A stretch of DNA of 64,000 bases from a virus, in IMG/VR virus record IMGVR_UViG_3300036987_000083, positions 1 to 64,000 of that record. One strand, written 5' to 3'. A model generated the notes under the pieces. The model had not been told where the DNA came from and searched no databases. It saw only the letters and a program-made list of their open reading frames with translations. Both the position numbers and the translations under genes were made by a program. Below are positions 3,713 to 60,274 of this stretch, one piece after another. The stretch's first letter is position 1, and every line of letters starts with the position of its first letter.

Positions 3713-4412
3713 ATGAGCACGAGATGTCAGATCCAAGTCGAGGGTAGCAGGGTCCTTTTGTATATCCATGCGGATGGGTACTGCTCGGGCATCCTCCCTA
3801 CGCTGTTGCCCTTCGTGGCGAAGTTCCAGAAGGTTCGTGGGGACGACCCCGAGTTCATGTCGGCGCGCACCCTTCAGGCGTTCATGAATGCCTACGACAA
3901 GGCTTTCCCTGACGACTATGAGGGACACCTCAGCGGGTTTGGGGTGGACACGGAGGTCCACGGGGATACGGAGTATCTCTACGTGGTGCGAGCCGGGGGA
4001 GCCGTAGAGGTGTGGCGTGCCCGAGGTGGAAAGAACCTCGGTGTGTTCCCCGTGGGCACTGACCCAGAAGTAGCGTTGACACAGCTTGGGGATGACGGGA
4101 CGTGAAGCCGTGGCTGAATTGACTTACAAAATGGCAACCCGTTCCGTCGGCTCGGTCGTCATCGTGAAGAACGCGAGCAAGAAGCTGCCTGAGGGCACCA
4201 TGGGTGTCCTTGTTCGCTGTTGGAAGGACTACGGGCTTCAGTGGGGTTGGCGAGAGACAGTAGAGGACGCAGTCAATCTTTTCCTGGCCGATGGCAAATG
4301 GTACCGGACGCGTCTCGCCAACATTGAATTGCTGGAGGTCGGTCCTGCCGAGAAGGAGCAAGCGGACGACCTACTCATTGCCTATATGGCCGCAGGGTCT
4401 CCCCGAGGTTGA
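3713..4412 (+). CDS. Two hypothetical genes (3713-4105, about 4086-4412)
   Basis: Divergent promoter TTGACA 3655-3660; GGAG RBS; first ORF has MSTR...Y.H.DGY, a motif common in phage hypotheticals. Confidence 0.65.
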
Positions 4413-4422
4413 GGTCCGACGC

Positions 4423-4626
4423 CTAGTAGTGACAGTCGTCTTCAACGAAGTCATCTTCAAGCAGAAAGATGAGCGTCGCACGGCTGATGTAGTGCGCGTC
4501 TGCGTCATGCTCTGGATGCTTGGGGTTTGAGGTCCCCTTGGGAGCCCCCTTAATGCGGAGCAGCTCGCCATCCATCGCCTTAAGCTTTTCGAGTAACCGC
4601 TTGAGCTTCCTGGTTGGAGTATTCAT
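4423..4626 (-). CDS. Small hypothetical gene directly downstream of the CRISPR array
   Basis: AAGGAG RBS; ATG 63 nt after the last repeat. Confidence 0.55.
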   Translation of the reverse strand: MNTPTRKLKRLLEKLKAMDGELLRIKGAPKGTSNPKHPEHDADAHYISRATLIFLLEDDFVEDDCHY

Positions 4627-4689
4627 GGAGTCTCCTTAACTGCCTTGTGCCATTTTCGGGTTGTGCGGTGCGTGTCGTGCAGCGGGCAC

Positions 4690-5447
4690 GTCTCGATTTC
4701 ACAGCCATCGAGCTGGCTTTGTTACATTCGTCATCGGCGTCGCCAATACACTCGTGAGGCTGTCTCGATTTCACAGCCATCGAGCTGGCTTTGTTACAAC
4801 TCGCACCACCGCCGTGGGCGCCGGGGGGACAGCGTCTCGATTTCACAGCCATCGAGCTGGCTTTGTTACGATCGCCGAAGGCACCATCCGCACCGTGATG
4901 GTGAAGTCTCGATTTCACAGCCATCGAGCTGGCTTTGTTACGACGGCGCCGCCCTTCATCGCCAAGAGCACTCCGATGTCTCGATTTCATAGCCATCGAG
5001 CTGGCTTTGTTACAGCGGCTGCTGAAGGCCCCGAGCATCATCGGTGAGTAGTCTCGATTTCACAGCCATCGAGCTGGCTTTGTTACGCGGTTCGCAACTC
5101 ACACTCGGCGTCAGCACCTCCTCGTCTCGATTTCACAGCCATCGAGCTGGCTTTGTTACGTCGCAGATAGACTGAAGGCGCATGCGAGGATCAGGTCTCG
5201 ATTTCACAGCCATCGAGCTGGCTTTGTTACGTGCCCAGAAAGGGCGGGCTGCAAAGCGCGGGTCTCGTCTCGATTTCACAGCCATCGAGCTGGCTTTGTT
5301 ACTCGACTTCCACCGAACGAATCAGACGGGCGGCGCTCGTCTCGATTTCACAGCCATCGAGCTGGCTTTGTTACATCGCTTCGGGCGCGCCAAGCCGTTA
5401 GGCGGTCGGAGGTCTCGATTTCACAGCCATCGAGCTGGCTTTGTTAC
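4690..5447 (-). CRISPR. CRISPR array: 11 repeats (36 bp), 10 spacers (35-37 bp)
   Basis: Plus-strand repeat GTCTCGATTTCACAGCCATCGAGCTGGCTTTGTTAC starts at 4690, 4762, 4834, 4906, 4978 (C>T at 4990), 5051, 5124, 5195, 5267, 5339, 5412. Transcribed sense GTAACAAAGCCAG-CTCGAT-GGCTGTGAA-ATCGAG-AC has a 3' hairpin like Cas12m repeats. Confidence 0.98.
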
Positions 5448-5591
5448 CTACCTTGAAGTTCCCAAAACAGTTCTCAGTGGTTGGACCCTCCTTTTCGAGC
5501 GAGTCCCTTACGCCGGTATCCTTGGCGGCCCAAGTTCTGTGCGTTGTTTACTAACTATTTAATTTTCAAAGAACAACTGGCTGCGAGCGGT
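5448..5591 (-). promoter_or_regulatory. CRISPR leader
   Basis: 144-bp non-coding segment between the cas stop and the first repeat, with an AT-rich core (5546-5575). Confidence 0.75.
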
Positions 5592-7355
5592 CTAAGCAGC
5601 CTGAGCCCCATTGAGGCGCTCGTTAAGGATGCGCAATAGATTGGAAGCTGCGTTGTAGTCTCGGTCCCAAGTGGCCGCACACTGCGAGCATGTATGCTCC
5701 GTGGTCTTCTTGCCGTTCCAAGTATCGACATAGAGGCACTTGTGGCAAGTGCGTGAAGTGTTCTTGGGGGGAAGCATTTCTACCTGTGCTCCATATTTTG
5801 AGGCGGCTGCCTTGATTGACTGCACCAATTCGGAGGGAGCGGCCATCGTGCGATGGTGCCGAGAGCTAGAATTTACTCCCCCGGATCCGTTTTCCGGTGA
5901 AGCCGACCTGGTGAAGGGTGCAAGGCTCAGCTTTTCCAAGCCGATGTTCGCATACGTTCGTGCGAGTTGCGCAGAAAAAATACGGAACTCCTCTTTGCGG
6001 GCACGAAGCACGGCGTCCCTCTCGTGCGCTTCCCAAGCCCAGAGGTGATCATCGTGTTGCCACCAAGCCAGAAGCGAATCCACTATAGTGGTATCCCCCT
6101 CTAAGCGGTGTTTGAGCCAGTTGGACACAAAACCCTTTAACTTTGTGGAGGAGCGAGACTGCACCATTCGAGCGGAGAGCTGACGGAGCCAGCTTGGCCA
6201 CGCGGTGGTGTCATGCTGGCTCAGCCATTCACCGAGGAAGCCTTTCGCTAAATTGAATTCAACATCCCGGTGCCCCCGGATAATGTTGGGGTGTTGCATG
6301 CGCCGGATTAGCCCTTCTGAAAGCAGAAGCTCCCCGTGCGCTCCAAGAGAATCCTTCCAGTACGCCACGCGAATGCCGGTCATCTCCTTCTCGGAGTCAT
6401 GCCCTCGCCAGCCCAAATCAATGGCGACAGAGGCTTCCTGTAGATTCTTGGTAGGAAGAAATGTTTTGGACTCCACCACAAACTGCACCTTGTACTTCCA
6501 GTTAGACGCCAGCTTTCCGTTCCGCGTGAGTGTCTGCGAGGGTCCGTTACGATACCTAAGCAGTCGGACTGCCATGACACGTGCATCCAGGGGGAGCGGG
6601 CGGTGGAGCACCATGGGAAGTTCTGCCCACATGGGTTTACGCTTAGCATCCGAGCAGACTCGAAAACGAATCAAGGTTCGCTGCTTTGCGCGCCGTCCCG
6701 AAGCTTGCCCTTCTTGTGCATCTGAAATAGGCGCAAGCTGGAACTGACTGTCATTGCCACTGAGTAGTTGTGCTACGGTACGTCCTTTTTGGAGTTGAAC
6801 CTCAAGCTGCCCCGTCCCGTCCCAATCCTTGAACTGCGGTGGGGTTGGATGCTGCTTGGCCGCATCCACTGCTTGCTTGCAGTTATTGTAGTTGCTCCAA
6901 TAAAGGCCGCTTCGACGCGTCTCTGCCACCCTAAGCTCGTATGCTGCTTTGTTGATGGCCTCTCGCTTGGCGAGGAGAGCTGGATCCTTCGTTCTCGCTT
7001 TCTTGATTGTCTGCAATTCTGCTCGTGCAGCCTTGAGCTTTAGCTTCAGCTCCTTTGTAGCGGCCACCAGCAAGTCGGTGCCTTGTTGCTTGGAGCGCGC
7101 AGTCTTGATGCTGGCGTAGGCCTCTTTGACCTGAGCATCAAGCGCATCTACGACTGCCTTTTGCTTTGCCGCCATCTCGTCTTCGTAGGACAAGGCGGAT
7201 TGCTTGCGTCTCCTGTCTCGCTCCAGCCCAACGAGCACATTCTTAAAGCGATGACAGCGCTGAAGCTGAGAGTCGATTAGCTCCGCACCGGAAGTCGGCG
7301 GGAGACACCCGTACTCATACACCCGCGATGGCAGCTCACTTGTCTTGCGTCGCAT
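5592..7355 (-). CDS. cas12m: Type V-M (V-U1) Cas12m-like effector, 587 aa
   Basis: RVYEYGCLPP N-terminus, long helical REC region, LYWSNYN, WDGTGQLEVQLQ, LPMVLHRPLP, RuvC-I IDLGWR, RuvC-II LEKL, CxxC..CxxC Zn finger, RuvC-III DRDYNAA; abuts the array. Confidence 0.85.
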   Translation of the reverse strand: MRRKTSELPSRVYEYGCLPPTSGAELIDSQLQRCHRFKNVLVGLERDRRRKQSALSYEDEMAAKQKAVVDALDAQVKEAYASIKTARSKQQGTDLLVAATKELKLKLKAARAELQTIKKARTKDPALLAKREAINKAAYELRVAETRRSGLYWSNYNNCKQAVDAAKQHPTPPQFKDWDGTGQLEVQLQKGRTVAQLLSGNDSQFQLAPISDAQEGQASGRRAKQRTLIRFRVCSDAKRKPMWAELPMVLHRPLPLDARVMAVRLLRYRNGPSQTLTRNGKLASNWKYKVQFVVESKTFLPTKNLQEASVAIDLGWRGHDSEKEMTGIRVAYWKDSLGAHGELLLSEGLIRRMQHPNIIRGHRDVEFNLAKGFLGEWLSQHDTTAWPSWLRQLSARMVQSRSSTKLKGFVSNWLKHRLEGDTTIVDSLLAWWQHDDHLWAWEAHERDAVLRARKEEFRIFSAQLARTYANIGLEKLSLAPFTRSASPENGSGGVNSSSRHHRTMAAPSELVQSIKAAASKYGAQVEMLPPKNTSRTCHKCLYVDTWNGKKTTEHTCSQCAATWDRDYNAASNLLRILNERLNGAQAA

Positions 7356-7396
7356 CAGCTTTCCTTCGGGAGTGGAGGTTGTTTGGATCTGCCCCT

Positions 7397-7468
7397 CTTA
7401 TACTACTCGGACTCCGAGTTGTCAAGAGCCCATGTCACTTGACAAACACGGTTCTACTGTGCTACCGG
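7397..7468. promoter_or_regulatory. Back-to-back sigma70-type promoters (cas12m leftward; 7475 operon rightward)
   Basis: Minus: TTGACA(7425-7420)-17-TATAAG(7402-7397). Plus: TTGACA(7439-7444)-18-TACCGG, ATG at 7475. Confidence 0.75.
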
Positions 7469-7474
7469 TGGTGT

Positions 7475-8695
7475 ATGCCCCCTAAGAGCCTTACAAAGTG
7501 CGTGGTCCGAGACTGCAGAGCTACTCCACCACACTGTGGTCACTGTCAGAGGAGTCCGAGTGACGGTGCTCACGAGATGGATCTACGCACCGCGCGTCAG
7601 TCTGATTGCTGGCCTGAGTACGTAGAGGTTCAGTGCATCAATTGCCACAAAGACGGCTATACAAAGCTGGTTCCGACACAGGTTGACTGGAGTTGCTCCT
7701 AATGGACTGCGGATTTCAGTGTTTTACGGTTGATGCTCCTGGGGCGGATCCCACTTGTCCCATCCACAGCCGGATTGCGGGGGAGCGGGCGGCGGTCGAG
7801 CTTGCGTGGCGGGAGGTAACTGCCGAGCATACTGCGCAGCTTGAGGAGCAGGAGGCGCGCATCGCACGGCTGGAAGAATTGGTTACATCACTGCGGGATG
7901 CTGTGGCAGGCATTCGAGGCTATCTGGAGCTTGATGAGTAAGCGAGACGACATGAAGTGCTACGCCTGCAACGGTAGCGGCTACTACGACAACACAGGCA
8001 GCCCTAAGTGCAGCTCTTGTGGTGGAACTGGTAAGCGAAAGAAGCAGATGAAGCCGAGCAATCCACGTCAGGTCGTTCTCTTCCTCAAGGACTGGTACAA
8101 ACCTGGGTCTGCCATGAAGGCACGCAATGTGCCTCTGAAGGAGAAGCCCGATGTGCTTTGGACTCTCTTCCGAGAGACGGATTTAGCCAGTCCCCCAAAG
8201 CTTCCTATTGTCCCTGTGGTTCGAATCAATGCGTGGCCGGAAGATTATCTCCATGACTGGAATTGGCGTCGTGGCGAACTCATCTACTCTTCACGGTGCG
8301 CGGATGGTCCTGTGTGGATTTTGCTGGAGTACCAGGGCACGCAGTACTGACGGCCGACCACGTGGTCGCTTGCGGAATTCTCCACCTCGCGCTAGAAACC
8401 CGCCTCGATGACGATGAGGTATGTGGACAGGAAACGTCAAGCAGCCCAGTATCATCGGGATCTTGTTGCAGTGAACGTAGCGAAGGGGTTGGAGTTGGCC
8501 CAGCGACAGCGCGGGGAGCTGCTCACCCCGCCCGAGCACAGTGAACTTGAGCTTACTGCATTGCTTTCCGTATATCTCGTAGCCTTACAGGTTACGGGCT
8601 TCGTAGACGATGAGGCTGCGCAAGGCCGGATATTTCAACGGGCTACGAAGTTGGCGGAGGAGAAGTTGGGGACGGCACTGGAAGTGCTTCGTTAG
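7475..8695 (+). CDS. Operon of small genes (7475-7702, 7702-7941, 7934-8350 with CxxCxGxG Zn-finger pair, 8408-8695)
   Basis: Overlapping start/stop codons; Cys motifs CYACNGSG and CSSCGGTG. Confidence 0.6.
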
Positions 8696-11336
8696 CCGGC
8701 AAATCAACCTGCCTGTAGAACAACTGCGCAGCCTCGATGCTGCACTTTACAGCAGATTCGAATTGCTTCGATGTCAGCAGGTGTCGCATCTCCAGCGTGT
8801 TACTGCCGTGGTTTAGCGTCATCGCCCCCGCGAGAGAATTCACTAGAATTTCTCGGGCTAGTTGACGTACTTCTTTGCTCAGCCCTTTTTCCCTTTTTAG
8901 CTCCATACACTTCACCTTCGTCCCATTACTACGTTGATGCACGGTGGAATGAAATCGTTGAGTGCCACTTCTTCATCTACGAGGTTTGAGTCTCGCTTCG
9001 AGGCCTGTAGCGCCATGTAAAGTCTCCCACAGGCGTGAGAAACACGCAGCGCTACTTTAGGGGGCACATAAGCCGTCGAGAGCCAGCCCCCGCGCTTGGT
9101 GGTTCGAACGGGGAGTACCTTCTCAATTATGTCGCGAGTATTACGGACCGAGAGCCCACCTAATAGCCAAGCAATGTCCTTGGCTTGCTGTTTCGTCATC
9201 CTAACCGTCACGGTGCTTTTAGCTCGTCCACGCAAGTGAACCTGCTTCTTGTTGGAGGCGCTCATGCTTTCTCTATTACTGCGTCATGCCTTGGATTGTC
9301 AAGCGCAGTGTCCCAGAGAACCGCGCATGTGGGTAGCCGAAATGTGATTTTACCTGTGTTAGCCCCCAGAAAAGCTTGGACCATTCCCGAGGTAATATAG
9401 CCGCTCGGTGGCTCCTGCAACAAGTCTCTGTGGTCACAGGCCGCGCGCATACTGAGGGGCTCCAAGTCTTCGTGATCAGTAGCTGCCGCTAGGGCCTTCA
9501 GTGCTCGTTGTGTCAGACAAACTCGGTCCATCCGCTATTCGTAGTACCTGGAGCTGCTGTAGTCGGTCAAGCAACGCTTGGGGCGCTACTTGAGTCCCTT
9601 CAGGACGTAGTCCGGGTCTTTGCCTTGTTCGATGAGGGCTAGGGCTACTGCTTCGTAATACTTCGGTCTAAACGGTAGCTTGCTCTTTATTGTGAGTGTT
9701 GCGGTGAGTACCGCAATGGCGACGCTGAGGTTTTTTGAATCCGCAACCAAGCGCGGTTTCAACCACTTATTCACCAAGCCGGGGTTCTGGATGTTGGCAT
9801 GTACGAAGTCAAAAATTTTTGAGATTCCTACCATAACATCTTGCATGCGTCCTTTATAACACCCTGGTGCGTAGGACGGCGAAGTAGTTGCTTGCTGGAG
9901 CTTGGCAGCTTGTCTTGGGGCGCCACTGTGGTGCCAAGCCCCTGCTTACTTAGTTAGCGCCACAGTCAGCGCCGCTACGGGCAGGCTTCTCATCATGTCC
10001 GCCTTGGCGCAGGAGGCGCACTCGGGGAGCCCGGCGCGCTCAGGACGGGTATTACAGTTGCCGTGAGCCGCTCGGTGGGAGCCCTCGATGAGGCGGGCGC
10101 AGTGCTCTCTAGCGCGGAGGGCCACTGCGTCCCTGTCCTTGGCCAGCTTTAGCACTTCCAGAAGCGCGTCGCGTTCCCATCCAGAGTCAAAGTTGTCGAC
10201 TAGTCTTTCGATCTTTTCAATTGCTGTCATGGGGTCCTCCCGGACTCCGTTCTGACTTGCAGGTTCACGCTGTCCTCCTGGCGGCGCAACGGTCTTCCAA
10301 GGTGTAGCACCATTTGCAATTGTACCAAGGCTTACACAGGCGTCCGCTGATGACAGCGACGATGTTTCTTCCGACGACTCGCTCCTTGTGCGCGAGTTGC
10401 ACTGCCTTGGCTTTGTACTTGCCATTTATTCGCCAAAACTCAACCACAGTCAGCGCCGCCGTCTTAGCGCCCATTGTGCTTCCTCCAATCGGGTAACACG
10501 CAGCAATAGCTAAATTCTTTCGTCATTTTGTCTTCAGGGCCGCCCGGAGGTGTGTAGCCCACCAACGTGCGCGGCTGACAAATGAAGGCGATTGGCAGGC
10601 ACTTGCGAAGTCCCCGTGGAAAGGGACGTGCTGCCCGCCTTTTCCACGGGAGTCCGCGTAAGCGACTGTACGCTCAAATTCGTCAGTAATTGATTCCAAT
10701 GCGTGCTCCAGGGTTGCAATGCGCTTGGATCGATTCTCTGCAATCCTCTGCCACTCCGGCCACTCGCATGTCGCCGTAGGGTGGTACTCCATCCCCTTGT
10801 GGAACTTGTCGGGGCAGTCAGCAATTTGCCTTCCAGGCCAAATGCCTCCCCCGCACGTCGGGCACAGCGCTTCTCCCTTGCCGCTCATGGCTTGGCCTTT
10901 GTGCGTGGGGGTGTTTCCGGCATCTCGGTGTTGTTCACAATCCCACCTCCTTCGGGTGAAGGTCGCAGTTACCGTCCCTGTCGTAGTCGCGCTCGCAGCA
11001 CTGTCCGGTGGCTTTTACAATAGCAGTCTGCACTGCTCGTTCCCAGGGCAGGTTGCGAGACGGGGGTTCGTTTTGCGCCCATGCGCGCGCCTCGCGCAGG
11101 GCTGCGAGCATGTCTTCGGCAGCGCCTTCCAGCCTCCCTTGCTTGTTTGCGTCGTCCCACTCTCGCGCCCACGCTGCGCGTCGAGCCTCTGCTGCTGCTT
11201 CCACGCGAACGGGATCATGCAGCGTGCAGTAGTCCCGACCCCCTCGATTGATTTTGGCGGTATGCGCACACTGCCGAGAGTGCATGGTTCCGCTCGAAAA
11301 GACTCGTTCGCAGCACCGTTTGACCTCTTTATTCAT
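8643..11336 (-). CDS. Run of hypothetical genes (8643-8906, 8912-9265, 9262-9531, 9586-9846, 9946-10230, 10265-10474, 10523-10888, 10935-11336)
   Basis: Co-oriented, closely packed ORFs with RBS or leaderless starts. Confidence 0.55.
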
Positions 11337-11709: not shown

Positions 11710-14363
11710 GCGTCTTCCGTTAACGCAGTGCAGAGGGCGTGCAACGCGTGGCGCTCGCGAAAATCGATGGAGTCGAAACCCTGTCCGCGAGTCAGCAAGT
11801 AGTCTCGCGCGGATACCAGCGCCTCTTTTAGTTTCGCGGCACGAGCTTCGGCTCGCGCTGCTCGCTCGTAATCCCTTTTTTGAAGTGTGTGGATTTGCTC
11901 GTAGGTGCCAACCCACGTTTCTACCTCATCACGCAGCTCTGCTACCTCATCACGCAGCTCTGCCACGGTGGCTTCGGCTTTGTCTCTTTGTTCGATGATG
12001 GTGCCAAGGTTTTTACGTGTATCCTCATAGGGGGTGGCTTCGAACCCTGCGGTGTTCAGGGCCGCCACCAATGGGTAGAGATGCTCGCTAAAATTGAATC
12101 CCTGCATTCCGACCATCGAATTGCGAATGTCATTTACCTTGCGGCCAAGCTCCTCCAGTTCCACGATGCGGGTGTGGAGGGCAGACACCTTTTCGCAGCA
12201 GAAAGCGCAATCACTCGTTTCACAGTCGGGACAGCGCTTCATGCTTCCTCCTTGTTCCGAGTGGTGTAGCGCAGACGACAGCCTGTCGCCGCGCTACGTC
12301 ACCATGCGTGCGGAGGCGCTCCGGGACGCAGACCGCGCAGCCGCAGTGCCAGGCTGCCGAGGCGTGCAGGTAGCGGGCAAGCGTGTGGCGCTCGGCGCTC
12401 GCTTGCGAGCGTTCTGCCTTGCGGTGGTTACTGGTGCGGAAGAGGTCGTCCGTGGCATTCACCAGCCAGAGCGGATCGACGAGGAACACGCAAATGGTGA
12501 TGAAAAGCGGCACCATGCACGCGACTAGTAGAGCGAGCCACATTACGTCTTTTCCTCAGCCGCGAGGGCGGCGCGAGCCTTCTCCCATGCTCCCGGAGGC
12601 GGCATGCCGTCCACGAGACACGCTTCTGGCATTAATCCTCGCAGCGCCTCCTCCAACTCCTTTACGCGTGCCACAAGAATGGCCTCTGGGCCTCTGAGCT
12701 TGTCAATAGCCGCTAATACCCTGTTGTAAGCCCAAGTCTTCAGCGCGGGCCGCCCTAAGATAGTTACATGCAAGAGCATGCTGATTGTGAAACCAACTAC
12801 ACGCTCAGGAGTGAGTCCTGGCATACTCAAGACTCGTTGATCAGTTTTGTCCGTGATTGAGATGTAATACTCTTCAAGCTCATTACATCTGATTTCATAC
12901 TTACAGTAGTTATCTTCGTGGATGATCATTTGAACAAAGCCCTCATTGTAAGGTTCGCGGTGGTGTGAATCACGGGCCATCCTTCGCCGCGAGGGCAGCT
13001 CGGGCTGCCTCGCACTCTGGTTCGTGTCCTCGATGGGAGCACTGTCCTGCGCATTGGCCAGCGGTGCGCTTGCCGATGGTTTGTGAGTGCAAAATCGGCA
13101 TGAGTCCCCGCAGTGCCTGCTCTAGTTCCGCGATGCGCACCTTGTCGAGTTCATTCTCGGCCTTGGCGCACAAGCCCTCCTCGGTAATTCGATTGTCGTC
13201 CGTAGGCGGCTCGCATTCTAAGACGTTATTACCTGCACGGAGGCGTTCGACCGCGCAGCCATGGTCAGGGCCGCAATACTCCGACGCCAGCTTGGCGACG
13301 TGGGCCCGGAGTCGTACTACCTCTTGTTGCGCGGCGGTGAGCGCCGCCCACGTCTTGCTGCGTGCCGCCTGGGCCTCTCCCGTGCGACGCGCGTACAGTC
13401 CGGCTTCATGCGCAGCGCTGTCAGCCAGTTCGCGTAGCGTCTCGCAGCGGGCCAGCGCTGCGTCGCGCTCGCGCGTCACGCGCTCCAGAGTTTCGGCGTC
13501 TCGGATGCGAATAGACTCTGCCAGTCCGCGACCGCACACTGGGCAGACCGCCATGTCCATGCACTCGTGAATCATTTTCCAGCTCCCGTCACGAGGGGCG
13601 TGGCCCGGACAAGCCGCGCCGCTTGCTCGGTGCGTTGCCCTAAGTGCGACTCCCCCGCACCCATACGGACCATCTCCGCAAGTCGGTCACACGCCTCCGC
13701 GCACTTCTCGCGCTGCCTCTCGGCCACGCCGTCGAGCGCCGCCAGCGCCTCGTCGCGCTCACGCATCGCCGCCGCTAGTCGATGCACAGCCACGTTCGGG
13801 TTGTCGACGAGCAACGCCAGCGCCGTGTCGCGCTCCTTCGTCACGCGCTCGGCGTCGGCCCGCGCCTCGTCGCGCTCCTTTTCGGCCTTCTCGATGTCGT
13901 ACAGGTAGTCCTTCTCGCGGTCGAGGAGTTGATCCCGCAGTCGCACAGCCTCGTCGCGCTCGGCCCGCGCCTCGTCGCGCTCCTTTTCGGCCTTCTCCAG
14001 CGTCTTGAGGCTCGTGGCATTAGCGCGCTCTACCTGAGCGCAAAAGTCGCGCCACTCGTCGCGCTCGCGGATTGCCGCTGCTACCTGTCGCGCAGCCGCG
14101 CTAGGGCTATCTGCTGCCAGCGCGAGGGCGTTATCGCGTTCCCTCGTTCGTGTGGCGAGTTGCAGGTTGACCGCTGGCAGCTCGTTAACCACGAGCCAGT
14201 CTACTTTAGCCTGCGCCTCGTCCCGTTGCTTTTCGGCATGTTCCAGGGCCGCAACAGTGGCGAAGAAACGGTCATCATCAAGGGGGCACTTGGTCGCAGG
14301 CGCGCCGTGGTACGCAACGAGTTTCTGCGCCTCCTCTAGCGTGTAGGGCTTCCCGTAGCTCAT
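11706..14363 (-). CDS. Coiled-coil, Ead/Ea22-like genes (11706-12242, 12220-12543, 12543-12929, 12970-13575, 13572-14363)
   Basis: Heptad repeats (AELRDEV x2 from a 21-bp tandem duplication at about 11921-11962; EKAEKERDEARA x2); RAALAA.E termini. Confidence 0.55.
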
Positions 14364-33985: not shown

Positions 33986-34522
33986 GTGCTACTCCTTGGT
34001 TCTTCGAGTGGAGAACATCTATACTGCATGCAGACTGCCCTTGTCAAGGGCCAAGAGGCCAGCATATCTCCCAGCTTCCGTTAGCATTGCGCCTCCAGAC
34101 GGTATGGACTACCTCCGTGCCCAAATCGCGTACTTGCACGCTGTACTCCGGCGGGTTGAAGAGCTTCGACACTTTCTCCAGTCGGTCAGCGGCGGCCTGC
34201 GCCGCAAGTAGCCCCTCGTACACGCCCTCCACTTGGTAGATGACTTCCTTGGCGTCATCCAGGCCGGAGGACATCAGGATGTAGACTCTCACGGCATCAC
34301 CACAAAGGAGCTGGTGAGGGTACGCGGACTCTGCATCGGGGCGGTGTCGAGGACCATACGCGTCTTGTAGCACAAAAAGACCGTCGTTGTCAAGTACATC
34401 CTAGTGGAATGTGGGTAGGGAGTTTTCTGTACCCTGTCGCTGTCAGCGACCATGTGGTCGCGGGTGCCTGGGTAGGGCTACCGATGAGCTATAGGCCTGA
34501 GTAGCCCGAGCTACTTCCCGAG

Positions 34523-34594
34523 TGACCCCACCGGGATTCGAACCCGGATTCTCACCTTGAAAGGGTGGCGACCTAACCCTTAGTCGATGGGGCC
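34523..34594 (-). tRNA. tRNA-Glu (TTC)
   Basis: GGCCCCA/TGGGGTC acceptor, CT-TTC-AA loop, CCGGG-TTCGAAT-CCCGG T arm. Confidence 0.92.
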
Positions 34595-34687
34595 TTGCTG
34601 CTGTTTTTCTAGCATGAGGTGAGTAGAAGTACGAAGATTACGGGGGACCACGTCAACAGCGTTTCGATTACAACTTGTTTTGTCATA

Positions 34688-34759
34688 TAGACGCGGCTGG
34701 ATTCGAACCAGCGACCCGCTCCGTGTAAGGAAGCAGCTCTACCCCTGAGCTACGCGCCT
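34688..34759 (-). tRNA. tRNA-Val (TAC)
   Basis: AGGCGCG/CGCGTCT acceptor, GCTTC-CTTACAC-GGAGC anticodon arm, TTCGAAT T loop. Confidence 0.92.
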
Positions 34760-34760
34760 G

Positions 34761-34833
<73 letters not shown>

Positions 34834-40257: not shown

Positions 40258-41022
40258 TTACCCACCGTAGCGACGACGCTCGTTGTACAGCTCCAGCTCG
40301 TGGTAGTCCTGGTCGCTCAGCGCCTCGCCGTCGGTGCGACGGGGCGAGCGGTCCGAGTAGCTATTGGGACCGTTGTAACGTCGAATCCGGCTGTGGTGCG
40401 CGTCGGCGCACTGTTGGGCCGCACTAATGCTTCGGTGCGCGTGACTACACGAACCGCATACGTCCCCTCGCGCCTCATAGGTCACCATGGTGTCTCCTTG
40501 TTGAGGCATTTACTGCCTAGCCCTCGCCGCCCGCATCCAGAAAGCGGATGCCTTCATCTGAAGGCAGCTCCATTCCGTAGTGCTCTTCGCAGCGGTACAT
40601 CTTGTAACTGCCGGGCACGGCCTCCCCAGCCAGCGCAGCATCTCGCCGCTCGACAGGCAGTACCAAGTCGGAGTGCTGCTCCGCCGTAATACTGGCCTCC
40701 CGGGGGCCTTCGGCCCGCACGAGATGGATTTGGAAAAAGCACTTATTGCTGGTGTAGACCTTGTAGACCTTCATGGCTTCTCCTGGGGGTTGCGGTGCTT
40801 CGCCATTGGCGCCGTCTCGTCCAGCCAGTCGGCCAGCGCTTCGACCAGCTTGGCCACCTCACTACGAGTCATGTGCGCGTAGCCCTTGAGCGGAGTGCGC
40901 GGCGTGAATTGCAGGCACATACTCCGCGCCTCACCCCCAAAGAAAGAGGTGACGTACAAGTCCCCCGCCAACTCAGGGGACTCTGGAATCCGCTCGTCGC
41001 TGGGGAAAATCTCTCTGGACAT
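40258..41022 (-). CDS. Hypothetical genes (40258-about 40488, 40517-40774, 40771-41022)
   Basis: RBS or leaderless starts. Confidence 0.6.
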
Positions 41023-43837: not shown

Positions 43838-43909
43838 AGGCCTGTAGCTCAGTGGTAGAGCGCGCTCCTTATAAGAGCGGGGTCACGGGTTCGAGTCCCG
43901 TCGGGCCTA
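43838..43909 (+). tRNA. tRNA-Ile (TAT)
   Basis: AGGCCTG/CGGGCCT acceptor; CGCTC-CT-TAT-AA-GAGCG anticodon arm (anticodon 43870-43872); ACGGG-TTCGAGT-CCCGT T arm. Confidence 0.9.
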
Positions 43910-44176
43910 CTCCAGACTAGAATCCCCCAAGAACAAGAGCCCTGGGGTGACCTCGGCTGACAGTACCGTGGAAGGATCTTCCAAGGGATGACCCCAGGAG
44001 ACTTACCCTGGTCGGGACTCAGTGGAAGAACCCGTCCGGCTCCGGCGGAAGAGGCTAACAGCGTCCACATGGTCGCCGATGGGATGTGGGTTCCTGGTGA
44101 TGACACCAGGAACCCTGGTCAGGCTCGTCCTTGGCGCCTCCTTGACAATGAGATGGCTACCTGCTAGTGGTGTGCC

Positions 44177-52196: not shown

Positions 52197-53024
52197 TCAC
52201 TGGCGTCCCCGTCCGGTGGATTTCAGGATGGGGCCCAGGTTGGAAGCCCAGAGGTGGAGTTGTTCCACGGTGTACAGGCCGTAGTTGTAGAGGTGTTGCT
52301 CCATCGGATTCAGCCAGAAGACGACGGGATGTGCTGTCATGTCCTTTTGGACAGTGCTATCCTTGGTCCACCGGGGGGACAGGGAGAACCACCGCCGTCC
52401 TGCTTTATTCAGCTTCGTCTCGATGCCCGTATTTGCGGCAGCCTGAAGGAGGCTTTTCTGGTCCAAGTCTGCCGCCAGCATTGCATCCACGGAGTCTTTG
52501 GGCAGCTTCGAGACGATGGCGAAAAGGAGGCCACCACCAATGTGGAAGGGTCCGATGTTCGTCCAGAAGGCCACGTCGCGCTGTTGGAAGGCCAGGTGCA
52601 TCTCTCGCACCCGATTGCGGTCGAAGTCCGCCTTCTTTCCCCACGCCACCATGCCGAAGCTCCGCTCATCCCACGCGCATGCGAGGTTCCGGCGGTCCTC
52701 GTTGTACCACGGACCCGGCCTCGTCAATTCCCCCTCCCTCACCCGTCGCTCGAAGCTCGCGTTGGTGGTTTCAGAGGCACTGAGGGTGTCCGGGGAGTAG
52801 CCGAGGATGGTCTTGTCCTTGCCGTCTATGAAGCAAAGGTTTGGGGGGCAGGTACGCACTCGTCGCCGCTCGACCCCATCCACTTCGTCACCCGGCAGCC
52901 CGAAGGACGCGCGGAGCTTTTTCGTGCCAAATTCGTGCTCCGCACAGAAGTCGCTACCCATCGCCAAGCCGAGCAGGCTGCCTTGCGCGTCCAGCACCCA
53001 CTTGGGTTCGTTCGTTCGCCTCAT
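52197..53024 (-). CDS. Conserved large-phage hypothetical protein (275 aa)
   Basis: GSDFCAEHE.G...AWDE.SF...FWLNP.EQ..YN.G; leaderless start. Confidence 0.75.
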   Translation of the reverse strand: MRRTNEPKWVLDAQGSLLGLAMGSDFCAEHEFGTKKLRASFGLPGDEVDGVERRRVRTCPPNLCFIDGKDKTILGYSPDTLSASETTNASFERRVREGELTRPGPWYNEDRRNLACAWDERSFGMVAWGKKADFDRNRVREMHLAFQQRDVAFWTNIGPFHIGGGLLFAIVSKLPKDSVDAMLAADLDQKSLLQAAANTGIETKLNKAGRRWFSLSPRWTKDSTVQKDMTAHPVVFWLNPMEQHLYNYGLYTVEQLHLWASNLGPILKSTGRGRQ

Positions 53025-59139: not shown

Positions 59140-60274
59140 TTACAGCTTCTCGGCTTCCGCGAGATTCAGAATGGCTTGCGCTGCGTCGATGAACTCTTGC
59201 ATGGAGGACTGCACCAGCCCGTCGCAAGACTCCGCATCCACGAGAATGTCCCGCGTGAACTCGGCCAGCAGCCGGTACTCTGACTGGCCTGAAGCCTCGT
59301 AGTAGCCGAGGAGCACGTCGAGCTTCTCGCTGGGCTTAATGGACACGGGTACTCTCCTTGTGTGTGGTGTTATACTACCGGCAGGTTGCCATTGTCAAGC
59401 ATCTGAACTGCATTTGTATGGTGTCACCTCGGCGCGCCGCGTGGCGTTGGCCGTCGCCGCGTCGTCCGCGCTGAGGTAGCCAGCGGCTCGCGCCACCTCC
59501 TCGGCGAAGCGGCGCGCCTCTCCGGCCAGCGCGTAGGCCTCCTCGCGCAAACCCGGGCGCCAGCATGCCGTCCTGAGCATCGACGTCAGCACGCACAGGC
59601 GCCGAACGCGCTCGACGGGCGAGGCGGTAGCGGAGTCCCGACGCGCGAGTTCGATGTCCCGCGCGAACTCCGCGAGAGTAGTGGGCGGATTCGTGGTGCC
59701 GGTCATCGTGGTCATGGTGTGGCTCCTGTGTGCTGTGTGTGAAGGTGGCCCGCGATGCGCTTGCGCCTGTTGTCAAGGAGCCCAAGCGTCTTCGAGCATC
59801 TTGGCCGCCACTTCGGCTCGGTTGATGGCTGAAGTAGAGCGCAGCAGCTTGATGACTTTCATGACGACTTCCGTCTGGCGCACGCCCTGCTCGTAATTCG
59901 CCTTGAGGATCTTCTGGTTGGCGTTGTAGAGCTTCTCGAACGTTTCTTCTCGGTGGTTACTCATGGGGTGCATATACGACAAAAGGACTGTCGGTGTCAA
60001 GCTATTCAGGCTGATTGGCCGGTCGTTCGATTTCCCGGTAAATGGTGCCCCGGAAGGACTCCATGAGTTCGACCAACGCAGGAGAGCCGCCGGGTGCCAC
60101 AGGGAGCCCGAGCGCCTGCTGCGCCTGCTTCAGTGCCTTCGGATCCATCACCGCGAGGTAAGCGCGGACGTGGGGCGTCAGCACCAGCACTTTGAGCGCC
60201 GCTGTCAGGGTGTCTACCTCGTCTTGCTGGGCACAGGGGCAACAGATTTGGTGCTGCTTCTGGGTCAGTTTCAT
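59140..60274 (-). CDS. Hypothetical genes (59140-59346, 59395-59715, 59773-59964, 60002-60274)
   Basis: Each has its own TTGACA promoter or RBS. Confidence 0.6.

Follow-up and report, generated by a model that had tools for sequence, protein, structure and literature searches.

How would a large phage use a CRISPR system of its own that consists of a single effector gene and an array? The question is raised by a minus-strand locus at positions 4690–7425 of IMG/VR virus record IMGVR_UViG_3300036987_000083, a linear contig of 179,489 bp with a G+C content of ≈57.6–57.7% and a CheckV completeness of 88%. The first 64,000 nucleotides (nt) of this contig, here called the window, were the stretch analysed, and all positions are numbered from its first nucleotide. 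An earlier note on the window had described the locus as a stand-alone, phage-borne Cas12m-like system, and had read it either as a silencer of other elements or the host or as a cleaving intermediate between TnpB and Cas12m. The profile, sequence, fold and repeat-structure comparisons described here all support a stand-alone phage Cas12m system. Judged from its sequence, the locus is real, complete and apparently functional, and our analysis identifies it as a type V-M system that is carried by a large myovirus-like phage and probably acts as a silencer, binding DNA without cutting it.

The effector gene, leader, repeats and promoter that had been described as one minus-strand unit were all found in place. 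They run in the order promoter, ribosome-binding site, cas12m, leader and array, down to position 4690. The promoter (7397–7425), as read from the sequence, consists of TTGACA (7425–7420), a 17-nt spacer and TATAAG (7402–7397), and lies 42 nt before the ATG; a putative ribosome-binding site, AGGAA (7361–7365), stands 5 nt before the ATG at 7355. The cas12m open reading frame (ORF; 5592–7355) encodes 587 amino acids (aa). It is followed by a 144-nt leader that reaches from the stop codon to the first repeat (5448–5591) and has an A/T-rich 5′ part, and then by a CRISPR array (4690–5447) of eleven 36-nt repeats (GTAACAAAGCCAGCTCGATGGCTGTGAAATCGAGAC) and ten spacers of 35–37 nt. All repeats but one are identical, the remaining one (4978–5013) having a single substitution in the loop, and the next small gene begins 63 nt past the last repeat. 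The public gene call for the contig is only 527 aa long: its start is placed 60 residues too far into the frame, so that the conserved WED strand at the N terminus is lost. In a second public assembly the gene is called with 587 aa, and this form is the correct one because the first 60 residues include the family-conserved Y15, G16 and P20, which are nearly invariant.

The promoter belongs to a class of sites, TTGACA-N16–18-TA[TAG]A[AC][GT], that occurs 25 times in the genome compared to 0.25 times in shuffled sequences. The sites are mostly on the minus strand (21 of the 25), between 2.8 and 83 kb of the genome, and they resemble an early promoter class of the phage. Only three sites in the genome are perfect copies of TTGACA-N17-TATAAG, and the cas12m promoter is among them; a generic promoter scanner missed it because the program demands a T at the last −10 position. 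No terminator was predicted between cas12m and the array, and no good promoter was predicted in the leader, so that co-transcription of gene and array would be the simplest reading. A search of positions 4300–7800 returned no Rfam family.

The 587-aa protein matched the PADLOC Cas12u1 profile over its full length (E = 1.1e-96, profile positions 4–530 of 533). A PADLOC model labelled Cas12f (PDLC01692) scored about equally over the same span, but solved Cas12f chains match the zinc ribbon only, and we therefore consider this label a matter of naming in the profile library. When the sequence was compared with all chains in the PDB, the five top matches were all Cas12m, with E values from 1e-72 to 2e-17. 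The best of them, 23vw, aligned with query residues 14–576 (E = 1.2e-72), and other solved Cas12m chains included Cas12m2 (E = 5e-20), GoCas12m (2e-19) and UnCas12m4a (2e-17). The first chain from outside the family was a Cas12f (E = 2.5e-6), matched through the zinc ribbon only (residues 509–574). The Pfam match was likewise restricted to the TNB zinc-ribbon domain (PF07282, E = 3e-14), and the NCBIfam Cas12f2 profile scored 34 bits against a cut-off of 450, in the C-terminal third only. The motifs previously quoted as Cas12m signatures coincide with columns that are conserved in the family alignment and that in this protein include W153, G182, Q189, H251–P255 and G315. The family is large, with 1,534 clusters at 50% identity scoring below E = 1e-30, and the best relative of the 587-aa protein is 43% identical to it.

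An AlphaFold2 model was built from an alignment of 32 relatives (predicted local distance difference test, 89.8; predicted template modeling (TM) score, 0.80). Its superposition on MmCas12m, which had been proposed as a check, was carried out and extended over the whole chain: the model matched both Cas12m2 (8hhl) and GoCas12m (8pm4) with TM-scores of 0.80–0.81, a Z score of 25.2 and a root-mean-square deviation of 3.4–3.5 Å over 537–539 residues. The predicted architecture is that of Cas12m along the entire chain, with a WED domain, a REC domain with an insertion, a RuvC domain with a helical insertion and a zinc-ribbon TNB domain. By sequence and by model, the protein is thus a full-length, divergent Cas12m (V-U1/V-M). 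Assignment to Cas12f (type V-F) was considered and rejected, as whole-chain homology is lacking and the TM-score is ≤0.47.

We also considered whether a transposon-associated TnpB (IS200/IS605 or IS607) could be encoded here, with adjacent repeats that are unrelated to it. The NCBIfam guided_TnpB and IS607_TnpB profiles do match the C-terminal third of the 587-aa protein. However, their scores (59.9 and 40.1 bits) are far under the cut-offs of 100 and 350, as is that of IS200_TnpB (31 bits, cut-off 425), and all these matches are confined to the C-terminal part, the first two covering only residues 437–575. Solved TnpB reached E = 0.012 in the PDB comparison, against 1e-72 for Cas12m, and superposed on the model over only 338 residues (Z = 19), with a TM-score that, as for Cas12f, did not exceed 0.47. 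The protein is also larger than the ≈350–450 aa of TnpB, and an array with a Cas12m pseudoknot lies directly after the gene, as in most relatives. The clustering with IS200/IS605 TnpB that the earlier note had held out as the contrary outcome was therefore not observed. As far as sequence analysis reaches, TnpB identity is refuted by the scores, the structure and the array, and we regard it as extremely improbable.

The repeats provide a line of evidence from the RNA. We aligned 15 repeats, from this array, from 13 further loci encoding relatives (11 IMG/VR viral contigs and two other public contigs) and from a solitary repeat described below. All share one layout, in which stem I (GCC/GGC) and stem II (CTCGAT/ATCGAG) are interleaved to give a pseudoknot. 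Both stems covary: 97.8% of the alignment cells were paired, compared to ≤41.5% when the partners were slid, and compensatory changes were found in seven of the nine pairs. Covariation thus supports stem II, which had been noticed earlier as part of a Cas12m-type layout, and also stem I, which had not. Counted from the 3′ end of the repeat, the paired positions are ≈−28 to −26/−17 to −15 and −23 to −18/−8 to −3, a register close to that reported for the solved CRISPR RNAs (crRNAs) of PmCas12m and Cas12m2 (for Cas12m2, PMC10442227). With its ≈36-nt pseudoknot-plus-stem repeat and its start 144 nt after the gene, the array is of the Cas12m type. No anti-repeat was found near the locus, and elsewhere in the genome just one further sequence resembles the repeat, the solitary unit at 154365, which is sense to the local genes. 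The repeat core was not found beyond this record in IMG/VR, GTDB species genomes or JGI metagenomes, and these searches yielded no host array or donor.

The RuvC triad and the zinc ribbon, both recognised in the earlier note, were confirmed on the minus strand. D313 of RuvC-I (AIDLGWR; 6417–6419), which aligns with aidlgwr of 23vw, is an aspartate in 23 of the 32 relatives; E474 of RuvC-II (GLEKL; 5934–5936) is a glutamate in 24, and D566 of RuvC-III (WDRDYNAASN; 5658–5660) is an aspartate in 30. All three are invariant in the 11 closest relatives. In the same 11 sequences, C537, C540 and C556 of the TNB zinc ribbon (PF07282; 5679–5747) are invariant and its fourth cysteine, C559, is nearly so, and D564, N568, A569 and N572 are invariant along with D566. 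What did not hold up was the view that an intact triad sets this protein apart from the characterised Cas12m proteins with altered RuvC residues. D-E-D is the commonest state among the 32 relatives, with N or H variants scattered among them; D-E-D clades have been known since 2022, and D-E-D orthologues were tested in 2024. According to Wu et al. 2022, as cited in PMC10442227, Cas12m is divided into four clades, of which clades 3 and 4 are the D-E-D types; the triads described for the clades are HEK/HQK, HDD, DED/NED and DED/DND/NED (PMC10442227). The triad found here is therefore that of clades 3 and 4. A “gradual inactivation” within V-M was described by Altae-Tran et al. 2023 (PMC10691335).

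Does such a site cut DNA? Bigelyte et al. 2024 tested eight Cas12m orthologues, four of them D-E-D, and none of the eight cut double-stranded DNA (dsDNA), while D-E-D, H-D-D and N-D-D orthologues all bound it (PMC11013384). With the purified D-E-D protein MsCas12m, neither DNA nor RNA was cleaved, whether as target or collaterally, and its RuvC mutant D274A retained processing of the crRNA precursor (PMC11013384). Conversion of the HDD triad of Cas12m2 to DED did not restore cleavage (PMC10442227), and features beyond the triad must therefore block cutting. Since D-E-D orthologues bind without cutting, binding without cutting is also the prior for any new D-E-D Cas12m.

The alternative is that the D-E-D site here is catalytically active, and that this Cas12m cuts or nicks DNA like Cas12f or TnpB, destroying competing elements or host DNA. 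This would fit the intact zinc ribbon and the fact that the 11 closest relatives all have D313, E474 and D566 as well as the DxDxNAAxN motif; two-metal hydrolysis has been raised for clades 3 and 4 by Omura et al. (PMC10442227), and a preprint on the myxophage MV-1 infers the same activity for its own phage Cas12m (bioRxiv 10.64898/2026.09.14.751636). However, four of four tested D-E-D orthologues bound dsDNA and did not cut, MsCas12m among them, and restoring DED in Cas12m2 gave no cutting. In addition, 23vw, the closest solved relative and itself a D-E-D protein, bears the deposited name of a DNA-binding protein, and the whole chain of our predicted model superposes on the non-cutting Cas12m2 and GoCas12m. 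Cleavage thus appears unlikely. Of the two readings in the earlier note, we favour the silencer, consistent with the behaviour of the D-E-D orthologues; no finding supported a cleaving TnpB–Cas12m intermediate.

We propose the following mechanism for binding-only silencing. The near-consensus sigma-70-type promoter seen in the leftward gene arm would drive cas12m and probably also the array, in one transcript that would be made early. Cas12m would then cut the precursor within the repeats, as its orthologues do, and the 3′ part of each repeat, folded into the pseudoknot shown by the covariation, would be kept and serve the crRNA as its 5′ handle, with no need for a trans-activating crRNA (tracrRNA). 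The complex would recognise dsDNA that is flanked by a protospacer-adjacent motif (PAM) and is complementary to approximately the first 17–20 nt of the spacer. By analogy with the four D-E-D orthologues, and with the deposited name of 23vw, the bound complex would block transcription or replication without cutting. Its targets may lie in the DNA of a G+C-rich host or in other elements that such a host carries.

Several findings weigh against binding-only silencing, or at least complicate it. None of the other sequences found is more than 43% identical to the protein. In the 11 closest relatives, at 35–43% identity, neither the triad nor the DxDxNAAxN motif varies; this argues that selection maintains the site for some purpose, which is not explained by any role known for D-E-D Cas12m. 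Omura et al. suggested that clades 3 and 4 might perform two-metal DNA hydrolysis and left the matter open (PMC10442227). The conserved site may retain some catalytic role that did not show in the orthologues tested. Finally, a protospacer was found for none of the ten spacers in the phage's own genome, in related phages or in phage and plasmid collections. The spacers had no target in their own genome or in five large related phages and no significant match among 50,697 phage records, the sole match having an E value of 0.8. Among 72,556 plasmids no match was significant either (29/32 in Shinella plasmids and 28/30 in an Azospirillum plasmid, E = 0.2–0.7), and for four spacers the exact 22–24-nt PAM-proximal segments gave no match in IMG/VR or JGI metagenomes. 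On the supporting side, the spacers have a mean G+C content of 64.9%, compared to 57.7% for the phage (p ≈ 0.003 by resampling), and this excess would point to targets in G+C-rich host DNA or its other elements rather than in close kin of the phage.

The missing targets could also mean that the locus is a relic in decay and no longer functions. No cas1, cas2 or cas4 had been noticed in the window; this was confirmed and extends to the rest of the contig, as the Cas1, Cas2 and Cas4 Pfam models gave zero matches on the whole 179,489 bp (≈88% complete), while controls did match. The phage would therefore be unable to make new spacers alone. Decay would also fit the presence of Cas12m in only one of five large related phages. 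However, the 587-codon frame is open, the promoter is among the three perfect sites of its kind, ten of the eleven repeats are identical and all family-invariant residues are retained, all of which make a relic very unlikely.

The carrier itself was assigned from PHROG matches on the plus-strand right arm of the contig to portal, head maturation protease, tail sheath and baseplate hub proteins, which identify it as a large myovirus-like phage. A weak match to the terminase large subunit was found in a 1,497-aa ORF (105766–110259, plus strand). A megablast comparison of the first 25 kb of the contig with phage records gave no match. The locus was present in contigs assembled from two public DNA runs, which belong to separate studies of a groundwater and a coal metagenome. 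The contigs of both runs collapse the array across one repeat (joint 4689 to 5412); this is an assembly effect, and spacer turnover between the samples therefore cannot be read from them.

Relatives of the protein are encoded by other viral contigs as well. When one conserved peptide pattern was used to seed a search of IMG/VR, at least 22 viral contigs (6–180 kb) that encode relatives were retrieved, most with an array 80–200 nt after the gene. The closest relative (P0041) lies on an 86-kb contig among small unannotated ORFs and is followed by two diverged repeats. In a maximum-likelihood tree of 54 sequences, the viral proteins were interleaved with sequences of many phyla from bacterial metagenome-assembled genomes (MAGs), and the well-supported branches force at least eight changes of the viral label. 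These data show that phage carriage of Cas12m is recurrent, and extends beyond the single case described in one 2026 preprint. By its portal protein, the phage falls in a large group of 160–200-kb phages. The one of the five large members of this group that carries Cas12m, G004 (IMG/VR, 199,636 bp), has a portal protein that is 55% identical and a Cas12m that is 33% identical, encoded on the minus strand near the left end, in a similar place, with an array (6122–8563) of ≈34 somewhat diverged repeats. The two Cas12m proteins are not sisters in the tree, so that independent gain or replacement is likelier than vertical descent. A different kind of array was seen in a 180-kb marine phage contig (L008, encoding relative P0017), where ≈28 diverged repeats with covarying stems follow the gene, at 7768–9100, with a period of only 45–51 nt. 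The spacers would therefore be ≈17–20 nt long, unlike those of a normal array built by Cas1–Cas2. An AcrVA2-like gene lies 6 kb upstream in the same contig.

The solitary repeat lies outside the window, at 154365–154400 on the plus strand, and is 34/36 identical to the array repeat and sense to the surrounding late genes. It is located 9 nt past a 15-bp terminator hairpin and 8 nt ahead of an AGGAG site and the TTG codon with which a 122-aa ORF begins; this late baseplate block follows the baseplate hub gene. Of the two differences from the array repeat, one replaces a C-G pair of stem II by U·G, so that the pair is kept. Shuffled genomes gave zero matches like it, and the unit was found with identical flanks in contigs of two independent metagenome studies. 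Such units recur in other Cas12m phages. G004 has five outside its array, at 13078–13113 (+), 40898–40933 (−), 52881–52916 (−), 60067–60102 (+) and 126481–126516 (−), where ≈0.5 per genome would be expected by chance; one immediately follows a TTGACA-N17-TAAATA promoter, one has tRNA-like sequences on either side, and three are a variant with compensatory stem changes. In a complete phage of 152,857 bp with two cas12m genes (G012; IMG/VR 3300032770_000005), the repeat covariance model found 81 matches, which form arrays at ≈37–40, 59–60, 104 and 106–107 kb and two-repeat mini-arrays and single units at ≈72.7, 80.0, 85.5, 91.5 and 96 kb.

These units raise the possibility of another role, in which Cas12m, besides or instead of acting on foreign DNA, binds and cuts the phage's own mRNA at the solitary repeat, either controlling a late gene or making a hard-wired guide. 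The position of the unit between the terminator and the AGGAG/TTG start, the preserved pair in its stem and the identical junctions in both studies are consistent with this idea, as are the promoter- and tRNA-adjacent units of G004, in excess of the number expected, and the dispersed units and mini-arrays of G012. On the other hand, this genome has just one such unit, and it follows a strong terminator, which makes its transcription uncertain. Its guide-like flank has no second site (≤4 mismatches in 20 nt) in its own genome or in G004 and no match in five related phages, and the flanks of the G004 units have no second match in their own genome. The homologue of the 122-aa gene in another genome (G001; 32% identical) overlaps the upstream ORF and has no terminator or repeat before it. 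The unit could also be a remnant of recombination. We therefore regard action on the phage's own transcripts as possible but doubtful, and DNA silencing from the array remains the reading that we prefer.

Some other features of the genome were observed. Four tRNA genes (Glu-TTC, Val-TAC, Lys-TTT and Ile-TAT) lie at 34522–34833 on the minus strand and at 43838–43910 on the plus strand. The 1,497-aa ORF with the terminase match also contains an internal match to an HNH endonuclease, and may be a terminase with an inserted element. At ≈70,180–70,480 on the minus strand there is a pair of H-type pseudoknot units, one with the sequence TAGGG-C-CCCGGA-CCCTA-TAACT-TCCGGG and the other covarying with it. 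Their topology and arm lengths are those of the Cas12m repeat, but the sequence is different, and the repeat covariance model gave no match to them.

With this locus, the Cas12m family gains a phage-encoded member that is divergent and apparently intact, and the published record of phage Cas12m, which is still thin, is extended. Compact, non-cutting Cas12m proteins are in use as base-editing and epigenome-editing platforms, so that new orthologues with other PAMs would be of practical value, and our analysis makes this protein a candidate compact DNA binder. The locus also raises the questions of what a large lytic-type phage silences, why the D-E-D site is kept if it does not cut, and what role solitary repeats have in front of genes. 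For the last of these, the solitary repeat provides a handle on a pattern that recurs in Cas12m phages (this phage, G004 and G012).

Among known systems, the closest in sequence is 23vw (“CRISPR-associated DNA-binding protein Cas12m”, 577 aa), which is of similar size and shares the D-E-D motifs (aidlgwr, leef, dqdynaa) as well as the HR..P and LYW motifs; its activity is known from the deposited name alone. MmCas12m2 (8hhl, 8hio) and GoCas12m (8pm4) share the whole-chain architecture of the protein, and their loci, like this one, have no adaptation genes. Their crRNAs are free of tracrRNA and have a pseudoknot handle in a register similar to that of this repeat. They differ in being only 20–23% identical, in having H-D-D rather than D-E-D and in being encoded by bacteria or plasmids rather than by a phage. 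MsCas12m and the three other tested D-E-D orthologues belong to the same family, have the same triad and show PAM-dependent dsDNA binding without cutting (PMC11013384). Arrays without other cas genes are a general trait of V-M loci (PMC10691335).

The nearest parallel in phage biology is MvCas12m of MV-1, which is likewise phage-borne and D-E-D, with an adjacent array and with no cas1, cas2, cas4, tracrRNA or spacer targets found; it differs in size (610 aa; D305/E463/D555), in having 8 spacers and in its myxobacterial host (bioRxiv 10.64898/2026.09.14.751636). The preprint (September 2026) calls it the first phage Cas12m. A 610-aa Cas12m with D305, E463 and D555 that fits this description is also encoded by GTDB contig JADZFZ010000476.1 (L150), from a Myxococcota MAG, and a phage contig may thus sit inside that MAG. 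This protein is 29.5% identical to the 587-aa protein and falls on another branch of the tree. Cas12j (CasPhi) of huge phages, cited in the same preprint, also combines a compact type V effector with an array and no adaptation genes, but it is an active nuclease of a separate Cas12 lineage (Z ≤ 13 against our model). Single dispersed phage repeats like the unit at 154365 are known as the viral solitary repeats Racr and Cracr (PMC10651486; PMC10120712; bioRxiv 10.1101/2024.10.29.618823). These mimic the repeats of the host and take over its type I and type V-A Cas proteins, whereas the unit at 154365 copies the Cas12m repeat of the phage itself.

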